From assembly GCA_016206085.1 (NCBI GenBank), contig JACQSF010000034.1, positions 26-64,025 on the forward strand: a stretch of DNA of 64,000 nucleotides, in the 5' to 3' direction. Under the pieces are notes generated by a model. The model ran no database searches. It was given only the letters and a program-made list of their open reading frames with translations, and was not told where the DNA came from. Origin of the DNA: Candidatus Uhrbacteria bacterium. Lineage in GTDB: Bacteria; Patescibacteriota; Patescibacteriia; UBA9934; GWF2-40-263. The position numbers and the translations under genes are program-made. Numbering within the stretch: position 1 is the first letter of the stretch; each line of letters begins with the position of its first letter. Of the stretch, positions 5,471-58,129 are shown in pieces.

Positions 5471-8400
5471 TCAAGAGCACCCACTCGTGGCTCCACAATT
5501 GAGGCATTTGTAGCACGCGGCGTTGCGCACCATCATGCTGCCGCAGGTGTCACACGCAGGCGCATCGGACTGATTGTCGAATGTCTGTGTATGCACGCTG
5601 CGGAGCTCAAGTGGCTCTGTCTTCTTTGCTTCAAATAAGTTTGGCTGCTTCTCTGCTGTCTCCACCTTACCCACCTCCGCCACCTCTTCCACCTTCGCTA
5701 CCTCCTCAATCTCCTCTCCCCCATTGATTCCGACAGCCAGCTGGCTCTCACGTGGCAAAAACTTCAGCGCGAGCCAACGGAAGATGTAATCGGTTATGGA
5801 CTTGGCAATACGAATCTGCGGATTGTTCGTGTAGCCGGATGGTTCAAAACGCATGTGTACGAACTTGTTGACCAACACTTCCAGGGGCACCCCGTACTGA
5901 AGTCCGATCGAGATGGACGTGGCAAATGAGTCCATGAGTCCAGAAATCACCGAACCCTCTTTACTCATGGTCAAAAACAATTCTCCAGGCGTCCCGTCAT
6001 CATAGAGTCCCACCGTGATGTAACCCTCATGATTTCCAACCGCGAACTTGTGCGTAATAGCGCGACGCTCATCTGGAAGTCGACGTCGTCGCAATTTCTG
6101 ATCGTTCGCAACCTTGACCACCTCTACCACCTTATCCACCTCCTCCACCTTTTTGTCTTCATTTTGTTTCTTGGCGTCACTTTCTTTTGAAGTTGTGAGC
6201 GCCTGTTGACGCTTGGATCCGTCACGATAAATCGCAATAGCTTTAAGCCCGAGTTTCCATCCGGTCATGTACACATCCGCAATCTCTTTCACGGTTGCCT
6301 CGTGTGGCATGTTCACGGTTTTGGAAATGGCGCCAGAGATAAACGGCTGAACCGCCGCCATCATGTGCACATGACCCATGTAATGAATGGTGCGTGTTCC
6401 CTGCGCCGCTTTGAACGCACAGTCGAATACGCAAAGGTGTTCAGATTTCAGATGTGGTGCCCCCTCGATCGTATCTTTCTCTTGGATATACGCAAGGATA
6501 TCCGTGCGTTCACTATCACTGTATCCAAGTCGTGTAAGCGCTTCCGGAACAGTTTGATTGACGATCTTGAGCATACCGCCTCCCACAAGCCACTTGTACT
6601 TCACCAACGCAATGTCAGGTTCGATACCGGTCGTATCGCAGTCCATGAGAAAAGAAATAGTGCCGGTTGGGGCGATGACCGAAATCTGCGCGTTGCGCAA
6701 ACCAAACTTGCTTCCATGCTCCACAACGTTATCCCAGCTCTTACGTGCCTCAGTCAACAAATCCGCAGGGACTCCCTCCTGGGTGATCTGATAGGTTGCG
6801 TCTCGATGCATGCGCATCACTTCAAGGCAGGGTTCCTCGTTCGTTTTGTATCCAGCAAATGAACCAATTTTCTCGGCGATCTTCGCAGACTGGTAGTAAC
6901 AATGTCCGCTCTGAAGACTCGAAATCGCTGCGGCGAGATTTCGTCCCTCATCCGAATCGTAGGCCAACCCTCGACTCATCAACAACGCTCCCAGGTTTGC
7001 GTACCCGATTCCCAGTGGTCGGTAATCATGTGAGTTCTGCTCAATGGCCGGAGTAGGGTACACGCAGTTACTCACAATAATCTCCATGGCTGTGATAATG
7101 ATCTCGTTGGCTTTTTTAAACGCCTCGACATCAAAAATCGTCACACCGTTTTCATCGGGTTTGCGGAAACGCATGAGATTCAAGCTTGCAAGGTTGCACG
7201 CGGAGTCGTTCAAAAACATGTACTCCGAACAATTATGAATCAGAAGCCCGTTTGCTACAAAATGACTTGTACGCGGTTCCGTCAAATCATATACCTCTTC
7301 TATGCCCGCCTCGGTTAAGGACTCAAATTCATCGTAAAAATAATCCGTATACGCTCCCACTTCTTCATTCATTGTACGCAACTTTGCTCGTTTTGGACTC
7401 CCTGAAAGAAACCCTATAGCTCTCTCAAACTCGATGCGTGAATCACGGCTGATACGCAACGAATGCATTTGTTGAACGGGATATTCAGCAACGCCTCCTC
7501 GACCATTTGGCATCATCGTCTGAAATGTTTGTCTTCGATTCTCATATACTTTAGCCTTAATACCAAAACCAAGTAGAAGAAGTTGAACTTGTCGTAAAAG
7601 TAATACGCTGACTGAATCCAAACCAACATACTGCGATTTCTCGCCATAGTTGGCAACCGTCCCGTCAGCGCTAAACAACCCTCGCAAGAGAGCGGCCTGA
7701 GATTCCTTATCCAGCTCAAATATAGCATCTCTAAACTGCTTTTTGAGGGAACCTTGATCTACCAAGGCATATCTCTTAAGCGGCTCGACCACAGCTCGAC
7801 TGCTTGTTCCAATACGCACACCAGTTGGTGTATCTACCACAGAGCTCCATCGCGCACTACGCTGATCTGTGGCCATTTCTTGTTTGTACTCGTTTACTCG
7901 AGTGTTAAAGGATTGAAACATACCGTGCTCCTCCCTTCCTCCACTCACGAAAGCTATCTCTTGCTCCGATGTAAGACATCCATCGCCAACCGTCAATCCA
8001 ATCATTTCCGCAACCACTTCCTCAATATGAACGTTGCCAAAACCAGGCTGTTTGAGTTCAAGAAGATCACCGATTCGCAATTCAGATGCCGGAACATCCC
8101 CGCGATTCGCGGTCCAAACTTTATGATCCTCCGTTAATCTAAGTTGATAACCGCTCTTGGTACGAAGTTCAAAAATCGGTTTTATTCCAGTTGGAAAGAT
8201 ACGTGTCACATGGCTACTTTTTCCATCTGCTGCGATTACACGCGCATCTTTCCCAACCAATTCTCCAATACGTCTGTAGCCCGAATCAGTTGAAATAAGC
8301 GTGTCAGCGGTTACGCAAGGATTTGAAGCATAGATACGATCAGTATTCTTGCAGGTGTGCCAACGGTTGACGGTGGTATCGTACTGCATGCCCGGATCGC

Positions 8401-9856
8401 CACACTGCCAAGCCGCGTCTGACATCATGTTCATGAGCTCGCGTGCGTTGCGCGTCTGAACGGGTTCTCCTGTGGTCACGGCATGAGTCGTCCATGGTTC
8501 ATCATTCTCGACGGCCGACATAAAGCCATCGGTCACACGCACAGAATTATTGGCATTTTGAAAATAGATGCTGGCATATGCATCACCATCGATAGAAGAA
8601 TCGTAACCGGCATCAATGAGAGCCCATGCTTTCTTTTCTTCCTTGACTTTGCACATGATGAACTCATCGATATCCGGGTGATCAATGTCCAAGATAACCA
8701 TTTTTGCGGCACGACGAGTCTTTCCTCCACTCTTAATGACCCCCGCAAAGGCATCGAGTCCTTTCATGAAGGAAACGGGACCGGAGGCTTTTCCGTTGCT
8801 ACCGCCCAAGTACTCATGCCGTGAACGAATTTTTGAAAGATTAGAACCTGTTCCAGAACCACCCTTGAAAAGCATTCCTTCTGTGACGCAAAGGTTCAGG
8901 ATGGAACGCATGTCATCCTGCACGGAGTTAATAAAACAGGCGGAACACTGTTGTGGACGTGGAGTTCCAACATTAAACCAGACCGGAGAATTAAATGCCG
9001 CCATTTGATTCACAAGAATGTAATGAAGCTCGTCATCAAACGCCTGGGCGTCTTCCTGTGTTTGAAAATAACCGTCCTTGCGTCCCCAATTCGCGATGGT
9101 TTTCGCGACACGTCCAACAAGTTGCTTCACGGAATACTCACGATCTTCTTTTCCAATGGTTCCAAAAAAATACTTTGAGACAACAATGTTTGTTGCGGTT
9201 TGTGTCCAGGTCTTTGGAACCTCCACACCCTTTTGTTCAAACACGACCTTTCCCTTGGAATCCGTGATGGAAGCATCACGTGTTTCCCATTCAATCTCGT
9301 CGTAGGGGTGAACGTCAGGTTTGGTAAAATATCGACCGACAACAATCCCGTGACCATACACTTCTTCTCGCGCTTCTTGCTGCAATCGTCCTTTGAACGA
9401 GACGTACCGTTTGGCGACATGTGGAAGATTGTAATCAACCAACGTAACACAAACGAACTCACGCACATCCGCATAGGTCGGCGTGCTGTGCCCATCAAAC
9501 TGACGCGTCAATCGACTCACGACTTGCGAAACAATGCGAGCCACTAACGCCTCTTCTCTCATTCCCGATTCTTCCGCGGCTCGTTTAATGGATCCGTGGA
9601 GCTTCTGTATCTCAAACGGCTGCTCTTCTCCGTTGCGTTTTTGAATGCTTTTCACGGACGTCATAAACGTCCAGACAGCGTCTGAGATGGATCCGGTCAC
9701 AAGACTCGTAGATTGAGCCTTTTTCGTAGCATGGTCCGACATAGGGCGAGTAGGTCGAGACTGTTTAAGAAATGCGCGATCTTGCAACTTGCGGGGCCCC
9801 TCCACCGCCTCATCGTAGGATTTACCTACGCCTCGGCGGCTGGTTTCCCCGCGCAT
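5471..9856 (-). CDS. nrdJ: Class II (adenosylcobalamin-dependent) ribonucleotide reductase with N-terminal ATP-cone, C-terminal Zn-ribbon tail and one intein
   Basis: ATP-cone VKSIQKRNGEEQPFEIQKL. Extein junction YASNP|C...HN|CSEYMFLNDSACNLASLN restores the NPC..E...CNL active-site block. Tail CDTCGSMMVRNAACYKCLNCG. The true start may be M39 or M65. Confidence 0.9.
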   Translation of the reverse strand: MRGETSRRGVGKSYDEAVEGPRKLQDRAFLKQSRPTRPMSDHATKKAQSTSLVTGSISDAVWTFMTSVKSIQKRNGEEQPFEIQKLHGSIKRAAEESGMREEALVARIVSQVVSRLTRQFDGHSTPTYADVREFVCVTLVDYNLPHVAKRYVSFKGRLQQEAREEVYGHGIVVGRYFTKPDVHPYDEIEWETRDASITDSKGKVVFEQKGVEVPKTWTQTATNIVVSKYFFGTIGKEDREYSVKQLVGRVAKTIANWGRKDGYFQTQEDAQAFDDELHYILVNQMAAFNSPVWFNVGTPRPQQCSACFINSVQDDMRSILNLCVTEGMLFKGGSGTGSNLSKIRSRHEYLGGSNGKASGPVSFMKGLDAFAGVIKSGGKTRRAAKMVILDIDHPDIDEFIMCKVKEEKKAWALIDAGYDSSIDGDAYASIYFQNANNSVRVTDGFMSAVENDEPWTTHAVTTGEPVQTRNARELMNMMSDAAWQCGDPGMQYDTTVNRWHTCKNTDRIYASNPCVTADTLISTDSGYRRIGELVGKDARVIAADGKSSHVTRIFPTGIKPIFELRTKSGYQLRLTEDHKVWTANRGDVPASELRIGDLLELKQPGFGNVHIEEVVAEMIGLTVGDGCLTSEQEIAFVSGGREEHGMFQSFNTRVNEYKQEMATDQRSARWSSVVDTPTGVRIGTSSRAVVEPLKRYALVDQGSLKKQFRDAIFELDKESQAALLRGLFSADGTVANYGEKSQYVGLDSVSVLLLRQVQLLLLGFGIKAKVYENRRQTFQTMMPNGRGGVAEYPVQQMHSLRISRDSRIEFERAIGFLSGSPKRAKLRTMNEEVGAYTDYFYDEFESLTEAGIEEVYDLTEPRTSHFVANGLLIHNCSEYMFLNDSACNLASLNLMRFRKPDENGVTIFDVEAFKKANEIIITAMEIIVSNCVYPTPAIEQNSHDYRPLGIGYANLGALLMSRGLAYDSDEGRNLAAAISSLQSGHCYYQSAKIAEKIGSFAGYKTNEEPCLEVMRMHRDATYQITQEGVPADLLTEARKSWDNVVEHGSKFGLRNAQISVIAPTGTISFLMDCDTTGIEPDIALVKYKWLVGGGMLKIVNQTVPEALTRLGYSDSERTDILAYIQEKDTIEGAPHLKSEHLCVFDCAFKAAQGTRTIHYMGHVHMMAAVQPFISGAISKTVNMPHEATVKEIADVYMTGWKLGLKAIAIYRDGSKRQQALTTSKESDAKKQNEDKKVEEVDKVVEVVKVANDQKLRRRRLPDERRAITHKFAVGNHEGYITVGLYDDGTPGELFLTMSKEGSVISGLMDSFATSISIGLQYGVPLEVLVNKFVHMRFEPSGYTNNPQIRIAKSITDYIFRWLALKFLPRESQLAVGINGGEEIEEVAKVEEVAEVGKVETAEKQPNLFEAKKTEPLELRSVHTQTFDNQSDAPACDTCGSMMVRNAACYKCLNCGATSGCS
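7232..8317 (-). mobile_element. Intein (362 aa, aa 514-875) with LAGLIDADG homing-endonuclease domain, inserted at the catalytic NPC cysteine
   Basis: Starts CVTADTLI (TGC is rc of 8315-8317). Block B LTEDHKV. LAGLIDADG motifs IGLTVGDGCL and LLRGLFSADGTV. Ends VANGLLIHN (AAT is rc of 7232-7234), followed by Cys+1. Confidence 0.9.
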
Positions 9857-9972
9857 TGCAATATCATCGCATTTCTTAAACAGTGCTAAAAAGGTGGATT
9901 AATAAACGTCAGATAAAAAGAAGATCCAACATAGGGATCATCTTTCACTCCTGGGAAGGGGAAGGCGCTCCA

Positions 9973-20896: not shown

Positions 20897-20910
20897 CCTT
20901 CTTTTTAAAT

Positions 20911-21035
20911 TAGGACTTTCTCATTTGGATGAGATGCGCCGTGCTGGAGTCAAGAAAAACTGCAAACGTAGTGCAACCTACGGTGAGGATTTTTCTTGGC
21001 GAAGCACAAGCAGATCGCCAAATGAGAAAGTCCTA
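20911..21035. repeat. Long nested hairpin element A (125 nt), member of the ATGAGAT...AGATCG family
   Basis: TAGGACTTTCTCATTTGG (20911-20928) is the perfect reverse complement of 21018-21035. Inner stems are GTGCT/AGCAC, CAAGAAAAA/TTTTTCTTG and CGTAG/CTACG. Confidence 0.7.
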
Positions 21036-21038
21036 TAA

Positions 21039-21064
21039 ATGTAAAAGCACCCGAGTGGGTGCTT
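21039..21064 (-). terminator. Rho-independent terminator of the frameshifted gene
   Basis: Minus sense: AAGCACCC-actc-GGGTGCTT followed by TTAC ATTT. Confidence 0.6.
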
Positions 21065-28534: not shown

Positions 28535-28691
28535 AAAACCGAGCATGGCCTGTTCCTAAATGAGCGATCTCGACTTTCACGGGCACCCAGGCATCGCTTC
28601 AACGTCCGTTTCAGGACGTTTTCAGCGATCGCCAGCCCGTTCAAGCCGATCTCATCTCATTTAGGAACAGTCCTAGCACATGCTCGGTTTT
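28535..28691. repeat. Long nested hairpin element B (157 nt); same family as D, opposite orientation
   Basis: Arms AAAACCGAGCATG+TGTTCCTAAATGAG (28535-28564) against CTCATTTAGGAACA+CATGCTCGGTTTT (28656-28691). Inner hairpin AACGTCC-gtttca-GGACGTT. Confidence 0.7.
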
Positions 28692-29589: not shown

Positions 29590-29722
29590 CTCGTCATTGC
29601 GAGGAGGGAGTTTATCGGCGACCGACGACGTAAAGTCGCGTTGCGACCACGTCGCTTTACGCGAAGCAATCTTCGAAGATTGCTTCCCGCCACGGCTTCG
29701 GCTGGTCGCTCGCAATGACGAG
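29590..29722. repeat. Compound palindromic repeat of the GTCATTGCGAG family
   Basis: CTCGTCATTGCGAG (29590-29603) is the rc of CTCGCAATGACGAG (29709-29722). Internal perfect palindrome GAAGCAATCTTC|GAAGATTGCTTC at 29663-29686. Confidence 0.75.
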
Positions 29723-39268: not shown

Positions 39269-40378
39269 CTACTGGATAGCACGTTTTAGGAGGCTCCAAA
39301 GAATCGCAAGGGATGGGTTGATGAGTCGATCAACGAGAGGACTGCTTGTTTCCTGATGCTCAATCTTTCCGATCCAGAGCCGCACGATCTCGCGATCACT
39401 CACCCGACGAAACAACCGGCTCTCGCGACGCTTGCGCATAACGTACATCCACGTGCGTGGGCTCAGAAGATTGATATACACAAGAACTTTCTCCTTGAGC
39501 CATCCGCCCTTGATCGCAAATGCGAGGAGGCCGAGCTCGGCGACGAACATGAACGGGGCGAGCAGAAGAAGGGTCCAGAGTCTCAAGTGTGACGCATGGA
39601 CAATGACGCGGTTTCGTTCCATCCAATAAAATTTCTGGATCGAACGTTTAAACTCGTAGTCGTGGTAGGCAATCGAATCGACCGCGAGGACGTTCTTGTA
39701 TCCCGCGAGTCGGATGCGCCACCCGAGCTCGAGGTCCTCGTGATAGAGGAACAGAAACGGATCGAACACACCAGCTTGTTTGAGCACACTCGACCGATAC
39801 AAGACCGCCGCCCCGCTCGCATAGGCGATCTCAATCACAGGCGCTGCATGGGTACCCGAAACATTTCTTGACCCGGCTTTGCCAGCAAGAAATGTTTCGG
39901 GTACCCATGCAGTGCTCTCCCAGACTTTTCCATTATCGCGAACAAACCCGAAACCCAAAAAGTGCACCATCCCCCCTGTGGCGTTCACGATTTCTGGGTG
40001 TTTCCACAGCATAATCCGCGACTGAACCGCACCAATCTTGTCGTTGGTCTGGGCGAGCTTCACCGCTTCCATAATCGCATCCTGATGAAGTTTGGCATCG
40101 CCATTCAAGAGGGAGACATAATCAGCTCCTCCCAAAATGGCATGACGCATCCCAAGATTATTTCCTTCGGCGAATCCGAGGTTCGTGGCACTGGGCATGT
40201 AGGTGATCCCCGATTGCTGTCTCAGCCACTCTTGGCTCCCGTCCTTGGAATCGTTATCTACAACGACGATCTCTAACTTCTCCGACGGGTAATTCAGCGC
40301 ACGAAGCGACTCAAACACCTCGGGCAAGTAGGACCGGTTGTTATAGCACAGGTAGATAATCGCAACGCGTGGCAGCAT
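39269..40378 (-). CDS. Glycosyltransferase family 2 with C-terminal TM region
   Basis: VAIIYLCYNN...VVVDNDSKDGS...DED-type motif HEDLELGWR. Confidence 0.8.
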   Translation of the reverse strand: MLPRVAIIYLCYNNRSYLPEVFESLRALNYPSEKLEIVVVDNDSKDGSQEWLRQQSGITYMPSATNLGFAEGNNLGMRHAILGGADYVSLLNGDAKLHQDAIMEAVKLAQTNDKIGAVQSRIMLWKHPEIVNATGGMVHFLGFGFVRDNGKVWESTAWVPETFLAGKAGSRNVSGTHAAPVIEIAYASGAAVLYRSSVLKQAGVFDPFLFLYHEDLELGWRIRLAGYKNVLAVDSIAYHDYEFKRSIQKFYWMERNRVIVHASHLRLWTLLLLAPFMFVAELGLLAFAIKGGWLKEKVLVYINLLSPRTWMYVMRKRRESRLFRRVSDREIVRLWIGKIEHQETSSPLVDRLINPSLAILWSLLKRAIQ

Positions 40379-46543: not shown

Positions 46544-46586
46544 ATGTACCGCGGCATTGTAGCGATTTCTTTAGAAATTGTCATGT

Positions 46587-47517
46587 GGGGTCAGGTCGGG
46601 AAACGGGAATTTCTAGTGTAACGATAATCATGCACGACAAATTTTGCCAACGGTCGTACGGTCAAGATTCAGATGTCTGGCAATCTCTGTATTAAGATAC
46701 CCGCATCTCAATTTCGCCAATTTTATAGCACGATTTCGTTGTTTAATGGTAGCAACGTTTTGAAAAATCTCTGCCAACGTAGGCCTCCCAACAATCCGTT
46801 GCTCGCGTGGGTATTCCTTTAGATCCTCGACTCCTGCCGTATGATTATCCCATATCCAATGAATAAATTGAGGCGAACCTAGAATAAGATCATGTTCAAG
46901 TTCGTCATAAGGGTCAGGAGCGTCGATTCCATCCATCACAAAACGTCGATACGCTTTTTTCGCGCGTGCGTGAACGATCATCATCAAAATTTCCTAGGAG
47001 CCAATCGACGTTCAGCCACGAGGGCGCGGTGGCTGTCCCGGCTGTGGCGTTGTAACTGCACCATTTCCATTTACGCGGGTGATCGACGAACCCTGCACGC
47101 ACCGCGTTGAGCACGATGTATCGCGCCACCGCAAGCAGATACGCTTCTTTTTCAATGATAAACGCTTTGTAGCGACCTTGAAACAGGTGACCGACCCCAC
47201 CATGGCGTGCATGAAACCACTGCGTGTAGTTCCCGTTGAGATCGCGCATGGCGGTGGAGAGATTTGCGTCGGGTGTTTCAATGAGCAGGTGAAAGTGGTT
47301 ATCCATGAGGCAATACGCATGAACAACAAGGTTGTGCAACTTCACGGCATCTTCCAGCCAATCGAGAAAGCCGCGTCGATCTTTATCGTCGAGGAAGATG
47401 TTTTGTTTATTGTTTCCACGAACAATGACGTGGTACAGGGCGCCTTCATAGAGGACGCGGAGGGGTCTAGACATAGGATGTCATTGTACCAAAATTCCCG
47501 TTTCCCGACCTGACCCC
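46587..47517. mobile_element. IS200-like (Y1/RAYT-like) transposase unit bracketed by 26-bp perfect inverted repeats
   Basis: GGGGTCAGGTCGGGAAACGGGAATTT (46587-46612) is the rc of 47492-47517. TCATGT is also shared just outside both copies. Confidence 0.65.
46628..47474 (-). pseudogene. Y1 (HUH) transposase, IS200-like/RAYT-like, with C-terminal DnaA-C-like HTH; split by a frameshift into 186-aa and 119-aa ORFs
   Basis: HUH motif DNHFHLLIE, Tyr motif ARYIVLNAVRAG, C-terminal ORF LRCGYLNTEIARHLNLDRTTVGKI. The frames overlap at 46914-46987. Confidence 0.7.
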
Positions 47518-47544
47518 AAAACGACATGAGTCGTCATTCATTCT

Positions 47545-54733: not shown

Positions 54734-54743
54734 AGGGGGCAGA

Positions 54744-54800
54744 CTGTTAGGTTGTAGGCTGTTAGGGTGTAGGAACTCGAAACGCTACAACCTACAACCT
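54744..54800. repeat. Two 15-nt direct repeats folding against a complementary arm (intergenic hairpin)
   Basis: CTGTTAGGTTGTAGG and CTGTTAGGGTGTAGG (54744-54773). CTACAACCTACAACCT (54785-54800) is complementary to AGGTTGTAGGcTGTtAG. Confidence 0.6.
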
Positions 54801-54814
54801 ATCTGCCTATTAGC

Positions 54815-55432
54815 CTAGTTGTTCAAACGTTCTACCGCTGCCCAAACGGAAGTTCCTCCGCTTGGAATAAGGATCACAACTTCATCACCCGGAATCCCCT
54901 TGAAGTAAGAGACGCTCGCGACAAGGACTTTATACACGTCTTGATCGACCTGCACAATCGGTTCCTGTGTGGATGAATCTATGCCGAGTCTTCCAACCAA
55001 GCGGCGACGTTCCACCGGACCAATTTGTTTAAATACGTAATTTCCGTTTAATTTTACTATGAGTTTGAGGATATCCCCCTCAACGAGCTTGGACTTAGAC
55101 GCGTAATTCTCCGGTACGGTATAGCGCACCCCATCAGCCCCGACCATCCCCTGGCCATCAAAAACACCCTCAATCACTCGCATCTCCATACCGGACTCGA
55201 GTTCGGTCTCGACCAATTTCTTCTGTGAAACAAAATGAACCATTTGTCTCGTGGCACGTGTCGTATCCCCCTCTTCGAGTAACTGAATCACGTGCGACAA
55301 ACTGTCACGGGTTTGTTTAAGCATTTGCAGGGCGAGTCGATTGCGTGCGTCGCCATGCTCACGCTGGTTTGCATGTACGTCAACATCCGGCTCCGTTTCA
55401 AATGTGTAGGTATCTCCTTCACTCTCAGACAT
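54815..55432 (-). CDS. Hypothetical protein (205 aa)
   Basis: ORF only; acidic N-terminus. No recognised motif. Confidence 0.6.
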   Translation of the reverse strand: MSESEGDTYTFETEPDVDVHANQREHGDARNRLALQMLKQTRDSLSHVIQLLEEGDTTRATRQMVHFVSQKKLVETELESGMEMRVIEGVFDGQGMVGADGVRYTVPENYASKSKLVEGDILKLIVKLNGNYVFKQIGPVERRRLVGRLGIDSSTQEPIVQVDQDVYKVLVASVSYFKGIPGDEVVILIPSGGTSVWAAVERLNN

Positions 55433-55440
55433 AGATTACT

Positions 55441-55567
55441 TTGAATTACGAAACTCGATGAGATTTGCGTGAACGGGCTGACGATCCCCGCGAACCCTAT
55501 GAAAACATAGGGAGAGCGGGGTCGGCGGGCGCCCGTGAACGCAAAGATCGCGAGTTTCGTAATTCAA
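55441..55567. repeat. Long nested hairpin element D (127 nt), ATGAGAT...AGATCG family
   Basis: TTGAATTACGAAACTCG (55441-55457) is the perfect rc of 55551-55567. Inner stems are TTTGCG/CGCAAA, GGGC/GCCC, CCCCGC/GCGGGG and CCCTAT/ATAGGG. Confidence 0.7.
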
Positions 55568-55573
55568 CATAGG

Positions 55574-58129
55574 TTAAAATTCGCTTACTTCTGGAATGGC
55601 AGGAACTACTCCTCCCCGATTTCCCAGCGCCGTTCGCTCCATAATCTCGGCCTCGACAATCGCCCGATCGCGACCATACTTCAGACGTGAAAGTTCCTTA
55701 ATCGCGTTGGCAAGCTCTACATCTCCTTTAGGTGGTGGGGTGAAATTGAGGGTGAACGGTTTCTGCTGGGCGTTATCGACAATCATTTTAACGTACCAGG
55801 TAAATTTATCCGAATTGATGAGATCGTATCCGGAAAATTCCGGTGCATAAATCTTCTCAAGTGTTTCCACGTCCTCAGGACCGATACGAGCAACAAAATT
55901 CGTCCCCACGTTCCCAAAGACGGCATCACGAATCTTTGTATCATTATTTTTGACGAGCTGTCCGATGTACTGGTGCGCGATAATGAGATTTAATCGATAC
56001 TTACGAGCCTCGGACAAAATGGTCGCGATGGAATCGGTAATAAAATTTTGGAACTCGTCAATATAGAGGTAAAAATCATGACGCTGATCCTCCGGGAGAT
56101 CTGCCCGTGTGAGCGCGGCCATCTGAAGTTTAGAAACGATAACAAGTCCAAGAAGCTCGGCATTGACATCTCCCGTCTTTCCCTTGGAAAGGTTCACGAG
56201 CAAAATCTTCTTGTTGTCCATGATATCACGGAAGTTGAAACTCGACTTGGCCTGACCGATGATGTTGCGCATCATTTCGTTTTCGACAAAGCGACCAACC
56301 TTGGACACAAGGTACCCCATCATTTCTGACTTATGATAGTCGCTCGTGTTGTCAATTTCGTCTTCCCAGAAAGATCGCACGACCGGATCTTTCAGTCTAG
56401 AACGCCAAAGATCTTGAAACTTCTTGTCCGTCACCATGCGCGGGATCTCCGCGATGGTTCCTGGATTCTCCGGATCTGCCATGAGCGTCAACATGAAGTT
56501 GCGCATCTGGTGCTCGAACATCGGACCGATCATCTCTGGCGGGAACAACTTGTAAAAAATCGAGATCATTTCCTGCACAGCAAAATCCTTCATGGCGTCG
56601 TTGGGCGCCTCAAGCATATTAAGACCCATGGGACGTTCCATATCCGATGGATTAAAAACGACCACGTCGTCCACGCGTTCTTTGGGAATATTCGCCAAAA
56701 TAAGTTCGATGAGATCCCCGTGTGGCTCCACGACCGCCACACCATGACCCGCCTTAATATCCTGGATGGCAAGGGCAGCGATAAGCTGAGACTTTCCGGA
56801 ACCGGATTTACCTACCACGTACATATGGCGGGTACGGTCGACGGACCTCATCCAAATGGGAGTACGAATTCCACGGAACATGTTGTACCCAAGCTCAATA
56901 TCTCCGTCCTCTGGCCCAGGGATTCCCGAAGGTGCCGGACCTTTGCGTGCGCCGAGCCACTTGATATTGGGTGTCTCGGTCCAGGGAAGAGGAAGATGCC
57001 ACAAACTCGCCATCTCCTCCGCATTGAGGACGATCGTATTGCTCTGGTTGAAGCCTCGATAAATAAAATCCCGGATGATACGTTTCTTGCGTCCTGGAAC
57101 AACCTTCACGAACGAATTTCCATATTCATAAATGTTGTACTGGGCAAAAGCATTCAACATGTTCTGCAAAAGCGTCTGAGCATTTTGCAACGACTTGGAT
57201 GAGGTCACAAGACGAATACACACATCCATTCCCGCTTTGCTCGCTTTGGTCTCAAGACCTTTGACGATTTGTTCCTCTAAAGGCGAAAGTCGATATTCTT
57301 TTTCTGGTTCTTGCGGCTTGTTTCCCCCAAATCCTGCAAGCTCAGCCCAACCAACCTTTCCCTTCTTCTTTCCTTTCAACGCCTCAGTAAGTTTCATTCC
57401 CTGCTGCATGTTACTGGCGATTTTTATCCCTTTCTTGCGCCACTTCGCATAGGAAGAACGCACCAAAAACTGAAACGCCGCGCCACCCCCTTCCGGAATT
57501 TTTGAAAGCACATTTGTGATCGCGTTGAGCGGATCCTTCTCAAGTTCCCGATAGGTCTTGATTGGGAACGCATGCTCCCGACGAAAGACAAGATGACTTC
57601 CCAGGATGACGCCATCGGGTTGGAAGATATTGTAATCTTCGACTTCCTCGGTATAGGCGTCTGGATAGGCTGCGGAGAGTTGTTGTTCGAGAAACTCACG
57701 CAGCTCAACAGGGGAACTCACATAAAACTTGATGAGCTTTTTCTCAACCACAATCTCAAACGAAAACTCATCCTGCCGTCCCAAGAACCACGCCTTAAAA
57801 CCACGCTGAGCCTTAAGCCCGCCGACAGAAGAGAAGAACGACTCGGAAGCCGCTATGGCCTCCTGTACCTGATCTTTCGACGGACCACGTTCACTTTCCT
57901 CTTCTCGACGAAATTTTGGGAGAGTCACCAGCAAGGTCACACGACGAAACGTTGCCTGTTTTGCCAGCGAAAGTCGGTGCAGGATAAAGCGGCCAAGAGA
58001 CAGAAACCCGATCAAAACTCCCAGGCCAAGAACACCCCACAAAATAACTCCAGCCATAAAAAGATCCCCCTGCGCCGCCCTGGCAACGGATGATGTGTCG
58101 GCTTGCATCCCAAATTGAAGTACGTACAT
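55574..58129 (-). CDS. Type IV secretion coupling protein-like (TraG/TraD/VirD4-type) membrane ATPase
   Basis: N-terminal TM. Walker A VVGKSGSGKS. Walker B FYLYIDEFQNF. ARKYRLNLIIAHQ. ATG 58129 overlaps the upstream stop (TGATG). Confidence 0.65.
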   Translation of the reverse strand: MYVLQFGMQADTSSVARAAQGDLFMAGVILWGVLGLGVLIGFLSLGRFILHRLSLAKQATFRRVTLLVTLPKFRREEESERGPSKDQVQEAIAASESFFSSVGGLKAQRGFKAWFLGRQDEFSFEIVVEKKLIKFYVSSPVELREFLEQQLSAAYPDAYTEEVEDYNIFQPDGVILGSHLVFRREHAFPIKTYRELEKDPLNAITNVLSKIPEGGGAAFQFLVRSSYAKWRKKGIKIASNMQQGMKLTEALKGKKKGKVGWAELAGFGGNKPQEPEKEYRLSPLEEQIVKGLETKASKAGMDVCIRLVTSSKSLQNAQTLLQNMLNAFAQYNIYEYGNSFVKVVPGRKKRIIRDFIYRGFNQSNTIVLNAEEMASLWHLPLPWTETPNIKWLGARKGPAPSGIPGPEDGDIELGYNMFRGIRTPIWMRSVDRTRHMYVVGKSGSGKSQLIAALAIQDIKAGHGVAVVEPHGDLIELILANIPKERVDDVVVFNPSDMERPMGLNMLEAPNDAMKDFAVQEMISIFYKLFPPEMIGPMFEHQMRNFMLTLMADPENPGTIAEIPRMVTDKKFQDLWRSRLKDPVVRSFWEDEIDNTSDYHKSEMMGYLVSKVGRFVENEMMRNIIGQAKSSFNFRDIMDNKKILLVNLSKGKTGDVNAELLGLVIVSKLQMAALTRADLPEDQRHDFYLYIDEFQNFITDSIATILSEARKYRLNLIIAHQYIGQLVKNNDTKIRDAVFGNVGTNFVARIGPEDVETLEKIYAPEFSGYDLINSDKFTWYVKMIVDNAQQKPFTLNFTPPPKGDVELANAIKELSRLKYGRDRAIVEAEIMERTALGNRGGVVPAIPEVSEF

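Follow-up and report, generated by a model that had tools for sequence, protein, structure and literature searches.

Four copies of a hairpin element in the window

The window, that is, the whole stretch of 64 kb analysed here, contains four copies of a long hairpin (D, B, A and E), detected with a covariance model (R1) that was constructed from 80 aligned copies and run with filters off. The proteins encoded in their flanks are closest to Candidatus Uhrbacteria (CPR), with a glucose-1-phosphate thymidylyltransferase that is 92% identical to that of GW2011_GWA2_52_8 and an RNase H-like protein that is 100% identical to one encoded on an NCBI contig of Uhrbacteria. Common to all four copies is a junction, denoted J1, that consists of G-ATGAGAT and AGATCG-C (in E with the variant ATGATAT) and is located directly inside complementary arms of ~19 bp. 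Arms are defined as the 19 nt counted from ATGAGAT or AGATCG, which sets copy D to 55439-55569 and copy B to 28546-28674. The copies comprise the following features.

55439-55569, plus strand: copy D, whole element, 131 bp; R1 score 120.1 bits on the plus strand versus 36.6 on the minus strand
55439-55457 and 55551-55569, plus strand: arms of D, 19 nt, outer two pairs mismatched
55458-55464, plus strand: 5' half of J1 in D, ATGAGAT; (nearly) invariant in the 80 aligned copies
55545-55550, plus strand: 3' half of J1 in D, AGATCG
55432-55438, plus strand: left target-site duplication of D, TAGATTA; a single TAATCTA in the empty site of L009
55570-55576, plus strand: right target-site duplication of D, TAGGTTA; matches the left copy at 6/7 positions
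28546-28674, minus strand: copy B, whole element, 129 bp; R1 score 128.8 bits on the minus strand versus 33.1 on the plus strand
28649-28655 and 28565-28570, minus strand: J1 of B
28675-28678, minus strand: upstream copy of the target-site duplication of B, TGCT (element strand)
28542-28545, minus strand: downstream copy of the target-site duplication of B, TGCT
20911-21035, plus strand: copy A, 125 bp, 18-nt perfect arms; R1 score 67.7 bits on the plus strand versus 14.9 on the minus strand
20906-20910 (left) and 21036-21040 (right), plus strand: probable target-site duplication of A, TAAAT, from direct reading of the sequence
9758-9886, minus strand: copy E, 17 perfect arm pairs; R1 score 94 bits on the minus strand versus 26.4 on the plus strand
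9861-9867 and 9777-9782, minus strand: J1 of E, variant ATGATAT and AGATCG

The opposite strands of the four copies reach only 15-37 bits. D, B and A are found where an earlier note on this DNA had placed them, and the 17-nt arms of D are perfect complements, as described there; the arms of A (18 nt) are likewise perfect, those of B (18 nt) contain one mismatch. The blocks shared between copies exceed chance, as the pattern GATGAGAT N60-90 AGATCGC is seen three times in the window versus 0.03 expected occurrences. The model places B on the minus strand and A and D on the plus strand, in accordance with the opposite orientation previously reported for B. Copy A shares the ATGAGAT and AGATCG motifs and the size (J1 at 20929-20935 and 21012-21017, 125 bp; boundaries 20910-21036 according to R1), together with a divergent interior whose type recurs with different arms at L089:2758-2885. 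The extent formerly given for B (28535-28691) contains the element, whereas its outer part is a terminator hairpin of the host. The earlier count of three copies has to be corrected, since copy E was missed: a scan for long inverted repeats recovers D, B and A as well as a fourth hairpin of the same layout at 9760-9884.

Copy E is located at the called start of a class II ribonucleotide reductase gene (5471-9856) that harbors an intein with a LAGLIDADG domain. The product comprises ~1460 aa here versus ~1000 aa in relatives, and its true start is probably further downstream, because the called ORF start overlaps E. Other hairpins of the window do not belong to the family. A second, unrelated hairpin insertion (29590-29722, 14-nt arms CTCGTCATTGCGAG / CTCGCAATGACGAG) is found between an epimerase and an RmlD-like gene, which abut in L001 (GTTAATATG); ~160 bp were therefore inserted here, possibly with an ATAT duplication, and the arm has one weak match in other loci. 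A hairpin with 30-nt arms (39840-39916, 97% complementary, no J1) lies inside an ORF for a family-2 glycosyltransferase (39269-40378, minus strand), and an imperfect hairpin with 22-nt arms (54741-54808, 82% complementary) is found in the spacer that immediately follows the 205-aa gene adjoining D.

Empty sites and target-site duplications

Occupied and empty sites were compared, as proposed in the earlier note; the sites of D, B and E are empty in relatives of ~90% protein identity. At the B site, L001, L002 and L005 have a 66-nt spacer with a terminator hairpin alone (10-bp stem), which reads AAAACCGAGC-(TCCG or TCAA)-GCTCGGTTTT; in the window, 129 extra bases are found inside its loop. Removing the element and one TGCT restores AAAACCGAGC-ATGT-GCTCGGTTTT, with the same stem as the terminator of the relatives. 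At the D site in L006 and L009, 2-3 nt separate the stop codon of a VirD4-like gene from the start of the following gene (L009 reads TTTTAATCTATG). In gene orientation the window reads TAACCTA-(131 bp)-TAATCTA, corresponding to a 7-bp duplication with one later change. The stop codon of the VirD4-like gene falls within the right duplication, and the ATG region of the downstream 205-aa minus-strand gene within the left one.

Insertion and duplication at the D site (55430-55576) together amount to 138 bp, or 46 codons. In gene orientation, the upstream junction recreates an ATG, from which a frame extends through the element to a TAA located 3 nt ahead of the real start codon. This read-through frame may preserve translational coupling in the operon, or may have arisen by chance.

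The spacer of E is empty in L118. Two strains of 97% identity (L115 and L117) carry a different copy ~25 nt from the E site in the opposite orientation, of which L116 keeps a truncated half. No recognisable target-site duplication was found for E. For A, neither the relatives nor a protein-based metagenome scan yielded an alignable empty site, and its 5-bp duplication, although likely, is less certain than those of D and B.

The arms are absent from all empty sites, hence the element brings its own arms, and the notion that it lands in palindromes is not supported. Insertion points are located in small hairpin loops in 17 of 38 cases, compared to 40% of control sites; this frequency, no higher than in controls, and the empty sites speak against insertion into pre-existing palindromes.

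The length of the duplication, with ends set 19 nt from J1, tracks the type of arm. Copies with the arm of D are flanked by exact duplications of 7 bp (such as TCTCTTC, TATAATA and TAAATAA): repeats of 6-8 bp are found in 13 such copies, 11 of these exactly 7 bp long. Among the other arm types, 23 copies have repeats of 4-5 bp, namely 4 bp for copies of the GAGACC type (for example CATG, TTAA, CTTA and TATG) and 5 bp for copies of the GGGACTG type. The targets are AT-rich without a consensus. A boundary repeat is absent in 26 of 100 copies, including E, and comprises only 1-3 nt in 34 more. The difference between 7 bp and 4-5 bp according to arm type makes a single enzyme of fixed geometry unlikely, and may reflect several enzymes or another mechanism.

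Distribution, subfamilies and variants of the family

An exact-pattern scan (GATGAGATNNNNNTGAACGGGCTG) of 185,579 species genomes resulted in 104 matching stretches, ~85% of which originate from at least 16 Uhrbacteria MAGs with a GC content of 39-59%. The remaining stretches include ~15 in other phyla that lack the hairpin and are chance matches; apart from these, the family appears to be confined to Candidatus Uhrbacteria. The same pattern identifies 91 stretches with 78 complete copies in metagenomes, while no true match was obtained in collections of plasmids, phages and viruses. By script, 100 distinct copies were extracted, and in loci that add up to 727 kb R1 detects ~120 copies on the ATGAGAT strand. 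The further copies that the earlier note had proposed to search for thus exist, with ~200 complete or near-complete copies in the Uhrbacteria MAGs and in groundwater metagenomes. Two MAGs harbor at least 20 exact-pattern copies each. Three loci with true copies beside Uhrbacteria-type genes (L053, L060 and L083) are from MAGs labelled as uncultured Gammaproteobacteria; genes of L060 are syntenic with Uhrbacteria loci, and these contigs are probably mis-binned or mislabelled.

The arms had been described as specific to each copy. Instead, they are common to the members of a subfamily. The arm of D, (C/T)CTTGAATTACGAAACTCG, is present in L001 and characterises a set of at least 16 near-identical copies; counted across related Uhrbacteria MAGs, it occurs in 20 further copies, most of them in C24_metabat.bin.112, whose contigs break at near-identical copies. 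The arm GAGACCTCTGCAAAACTCG is common to many other copies, and the arm of B resembles the group that begins with GGGACTGTTCC. Arm types and interior types are combined in several ways. Across 100 copies, the 19-bp arms are 92% Watson-Crick paired. Sequence is free in their outer 10 bp, down to the terminal nucleotides (G, A, C or T), with the pairing kept, and irrespective of the arm sequence the ends are located 19 bp from J1.

Copies range from 72 to ~210 bp, with a typical size of 127-131 bp, and no protein-sized ORF fits within the element. The shortest are two 72-nt mini-elements (L078:3054-3125 and L068:4542-4613) consisting of 19-bp arms, J1 and one small hairpin; one of the two carries a TAAT duplication. 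Arms and J1 therefore appear to be the minimal unit. Copy L112:6479-6676 begins like these mini-elements, yet is 198 nt long. Longer copies contain extra hairpins at internal loops. In L028:2800-2929, CGATCT stands in place of ATGAGAT at the left junction and complements the right junction exactly, which implies that correction of the palindrome (by template switching) does happen. We also found nested copies (L040:3770-4177 and L100:7255-7428, each interrupted by another copy), truncated relics, and independent insertions in the same spacer of strains that are 97% identical. In three cases (L043:5963-6093, L085:501-628 and L086:6272-6401) long ORFs run through copies without a stop codon; these could be in-frame insertions into genes, like the RPEs of Rickettsia, or artificial fusions of neighbouring genes.

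Predicted structure and covariation

Each copy in the window is predicted to fold into a long rod (z-scores: ATGAGAT strand, -10 to -11; opposite strand, -8.6 to -10.4), and the whole copy is one long imperfect palindrome. J1, at the inner end of the arm stem, consists of 5'-G-A-UGA-GA-U opposite A-GA-UCG-C-3'; in the predicted fold these form a bulged A, a U.G, a G-C and an A-U pair, followed by tandem G.A pairs. Inward of J1 a 7-bp helix is predicted, which in B and D is followed by a second tandem G.A (UGAA opposite UGAA) and then by ACGGGC/GCCCGU. Beyond J1 the interior is variable and rod-like, usually with more UGAA/UGAA tandem-G.A loops. The internal loops that the earlier note had described as rich in GAA are thus present, but are better described as symmetric tandem G.A motifs, AGAU/AGAU and UGAA/UGAA.

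Among the 80 aligned copies the invariant positions are G-ATGA.AT and GATCG-C. In the same alignment 96.3% of the cells are paired, and 26 of 35 pairs have changes on both sides. Covariation, which the earlier note had suggested to evaluate, is strong: the score of 0.507 compares to 0.129 for shuffled alignments (reached in 0 of 500) and to 0.065-0.11 for slid partners. The inner stem P2 also covaries (6 pairs with several pair types), and compensatory substitutions are found in the arms as well as in inner stems. In each of the 100 copies the ATGAGAT strand is the one that folds better, with 291 versus 53 G.U pairs; since copies are related by descent, fewer independent events have occurred than this excess and the covariation counts suggest. 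At arm positions 1-17 the non-Watson-Crick pairs comprise 44 G.T versus 8 A.C, and across the loci R1 yields 120-140 bits on the ATGAGAT strand versus 40-50 bits on the opposite strand. The constrained strand is the ATGAGAT strand.

The proposal of a functional structured RNA accordingly holds with respect to the structural signal, which is strong and strand-specific, whereas a function of the RNA for the host does not fit the random orientation and the unstable sites. With respect to the flanking ORFs the orientations are ++ (14), -- (22), +- (14) and -+ (14). Within the young D-type subfamily, private mutations comprise 5 G.U versus 5 A.C and shared variants 6 G.U versus 2 A.C, and 13 further variants are compensated (10 private, 3 shared), although these numbers are small. 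The private mutations in young copies look neutral, and the pattern of private and shared mutations fits selection at the time when copies are made, not after landing. No Rfam family matched at the gathering threshold, nor when the limit was set to E<=10 for D and to E<=1 for the window as a whole, and no covariance model, including those for self-cleaving ribozymes and omega or bridge RNAs, resulted in a match, which rejects any Rfam family as a candidate. Lack of an orientation bias, neutral private mutations, sites that differ at 90-97% identity and the missing Rfam match leave a host function unsupported, and the structure is better explained as a need of the element's own propagation.

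Search for a mobilising gene

We did not detect a version of the element that carries a gene among ~190 left ends in 1.66 Mb of loci, and among multi-copy proteins in the loci no transposase recurs near copies. Searches for solo ends, for arms without a junction, for long-range inverted repeats, and for an arm with a distant reverse complement likewise revealed no autonomous partner. We note that MAGs often lack multi-copy IS elements, hence the failure to find a mobilising gene is weak evidence.

The window encodes an IS200-like Y1 (HUH) protein on the minus strand (46586-47518; PF01797, E = 8.7e-15 at 46914-47474), apparently split by a frameshift into ORFs of 186 aa and 119 aa. A perfect inverted repeat of 27 nt (TGGGGTCAGGTCGGGAAACGGGAATTT) borders the gene on both sides, a layout like that of RAYT genes, and this repeat has one or two weak relatives in other loci. 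L088:6650-7771, from the MAG with a burst of D-type copies, contains a 302-aa ORF whose weak match to an IS66-type DDE transposase (E = 0.001) does not reach the Pfam cut-off; the ORF lies between inverted repeats of 27 nt, and these ends are unrelated to the hairpin family. Searches by tblastn with the Y1 protein of the window and with the IS66-like DDE protein of L088 were negative.

A probable gene-less mobile element and its possible mechanism

One of the two readings offered in the earlier note was a MITE-like DNA element, and empty sites, target-site duplications, nested copies and random orientation support it. The element combines small size and lack of coding capacity with terminal inverted repeats, target-site duplications, empty sites and many dispersed copies, all characteristic of MITEs; atypical is that the sequence of the inverted repeat varies between subfamilies. 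A further MITE trait, an autonomous IS that has the same ends and encodes the transposase, was not found among ~190 left ends or in 1.66 Mb of loci. We consider it likely that the copies constitute a non-autonomous, gene-less, MITE-like 'foldback' family of mobile DNA whose propagation needs a folded single strand. The family is real and previously undescribed: no description of it was found in the literature, and Rfam contains no match. Its kind of element is known; its way of defining ends is unusual.

A possible route of propagation involves a protein supplied in trans that would recognise the folded J1 and stem on one strand, which might take the form of single-stranded DNA, of a DNA cruciform or, with lower probability, of an RNA copy. 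The protein would cut at a measured distance from J1, and the element would be joined into staggered cuts of the target. Selection on the hairpin could then arise since only copies that fold well would be propagated; the host would have no need for the hairpin. More specifically, the mechanism might be a novel, structure-guided one, in which an enzyme reads the folded strand (the stem and the G.A pairs of J1), measures 19 bp and inserts the element with a short duplication; we regard this specific version as rather unlikely and put it forward only tentatively.

About as unlikely, in our judgement, is that the copies are ordinary MITEs derived from IS elements, with a DDE transposase that binds the double-stranded arm and J1 by sequence, and with a hairpin that is a by-product of their origin and of template-switch correction. 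Duplications of fixed, short length within each subfamily point in this direction, as do the imperfect 25-bp inverted ends (left ...CTCG-ATGAGAT, right ...CTCG-CGATCT), which are reminiscent of many IS elements, and the mini-elements, in which only the ends are needed. The converted junction at L028:2800 shows that the correction process invoked does occur, and parent IS elements with different inverted repeats would give rise to covarying arms without any folded intermediate. Different parents, however, do not account for the covariation seen in inner stems, which are distant from the ends. DDE enzymes normally require conserved terminal nucleotides, whereas here the outer 10 bp and the terminal nucleotides are free, yet paired; the tandem G.A mismatches are conserved and not corrected away; G.T is tolerated over A.C on one strand; and no parent IS was found in the examined loci. 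Free terminal nucleotides, covariation of inner stems, and G.A mismatches that are kept despite correction of the palindrome render a model of sequence-specific recognition of double-stranded DNA by a DDE enzyme insufficient.

The strand-specific signal, together with the strong covariation and the conserved non-Watson-Crick junctions, would also be expected from a structured non-coding RNA, either a gene or a cis-regulatory element, that serves the host (for example as a G.A-motif protein-binding rod, an mRNA stabiliser or a terminator) and was multiplied secondarily; the optional extra hairpins at internal loops are found in many RNAs as well. Copies that are oriented at random relative to genes, differ in their insertion sites between strains, are interrupted by other copies or truncated, have target-site duplications, accumulate seemingly neutral private mutations and match no Rfam family make this reading quite improbable. 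Hairpin recognition, strand specificity and conserved mismatched bases are likewise reminiscent of IS608 ends and REPINs, and the window holds a candidate Y1_Tnp gene (46914-47474) flanked by an inverted repeat. That an HUH Y1 enzyme moves the element as single-stranded DNA, either as a derivative of IS200/IS605 or as a REPIN/RAYT system, is nevertheless highly unlikely: transposition by Y1 HUH enzymes is not known to make a target-site duplication, whereas the copies have such duplications; the repeats that flank the gene are unrelated to the hairpin family; and the gene looks frameshifted and does not recur in 1.66 Mb around ~300 copies. An intermediate of RNA, finally, could accommodate the G.U tolerance and the rod-like folding. 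CPR genomes are known to carry reverse transcriptases, and the reassortment of arm and interior types is what template switching would produce; a retro-mobile, SINE-like element, with a folded ATGAGAT-strand RNA that is reverse-transcribed and inserted at staggered nicks, is therefore conceivable. We consider it very improbable, as the length of the duplication is fixed per subfamily instead of varying copy by copy, neither a tail nor a pattern of 5' truncation is found, no reverse transcriptase gene is seen near copies, and no internal promoter is evident. A foldback family of mobile DNA thus remains our preferred reading.

With genomes of ~1 Mb, CPR bacteria generally count as poor in mobile DNA; a single element family accounts here for tens of copies per genome. 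Copies differ between strains of 90-97% identity, break MAG assemblies and land in operons and terminators, and hence contribute to variation between strains, can serve as practical strain markers and lead to mis-called ORFs. Provided that structure and distance, and not sequence, set the ends, the family offers a tractable entry to a new type of transposon-end recognition. A structure-guided mechanism, if true, would combine structure-only recognition, as in attC and IS608 ends, with duplication-forming integration, and the enzyme involved could be a new or repurposed CPR protein.

Comparison with known systems

Several systems resemble the Uhrbacteria element in part. The HIP1 repeat of cyanobacteria is dismissed, since GCGATCGC is not enriched and the organism belongs to Uhrbacteria, and the predicted fold rules out readings of GAUGAGAU as hammerhead, k-turn or box C/D motif. 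In k-turns and box C/D motifs, tandem G.A pairs adjoin a canonical stem and follow a bulge of 3 nt; J1, judged by predicted folds only, is not a k-turn, as it has a 1-nt bulge, 3 bp and a tandem G.A inside a continuous helix. The TIGR stem-loop guide units, considered together with box C/D RNAs, also occur in CPR, with variable palindromic stems that flank short motifs and with G.A pairs by the terminal stem; they are organised in tandem arrays beside a Tas gene and have unpaired spacers, and this described array organisation rules them out (PMC12045711). Copies of the Uhrbacteria element, in contrast, are dispersed, with an interior that is fully paired.

As in the attC sites of integrons, the site appears to be set by the fold of one strand, with free sequence, conserved short motifs at the base of the stem and conserved unpaired bases. 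The length of attC sites is 57-141 nt. Unlike these, the Uhrbacteria element has no RYYYAAC/GTTRRRY box, no cassette array and no adjoining integrase, and a variable target is duplicated; the base of its stem reads G-ATGAGAT / AGATCG-C and its copies are dispersed among housekeeping genes, such that attC is rejected. PATEs derived from IS200/IS605 have distinct left and right subterminal hairpins and insert 3' of a fixed 4-5-nt target without duplication. They are rejected as well, because the element consists of a single hairpin of whole length and its targets vary and are duplicated. With REPINs (REP sequences and RAYT) the element shares hairpin halves with compensatory change, an apparent recognition of single strands, and dozens of copies. 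REPINs, however, lack target-site duplications, and their sequence corresponds to the repeats on either side of the RAYT gene; membership in this class is excluded by the duplications of the Uhrbacteria element and by the 27-nt flanks of the Y1 gene, which are unrelated to the family.

A further resemblance is with the hairpin-forming MITEs of bacteria, namely Correia elements in Neisseria, ERIC/IRU in enterobacteria and RPE in Rickettsia. Like these, the element combines a length of 100-160 bp, the lack of an ORF and an imperfect palindrome over its whole length with tens of dispersed, mostly intergenic copies that occur in either orientation and are flanked by a target-site duplication. The three families, as they are generally described, are set apart by a conserved terminal repeat and by the duplication of mostly TA, whereas in the Uhrbacteria element the outer arm is free in sequence, its pairing, its length of 19 bp and J1 are kept, and the duplications comprise 4-7 bp.
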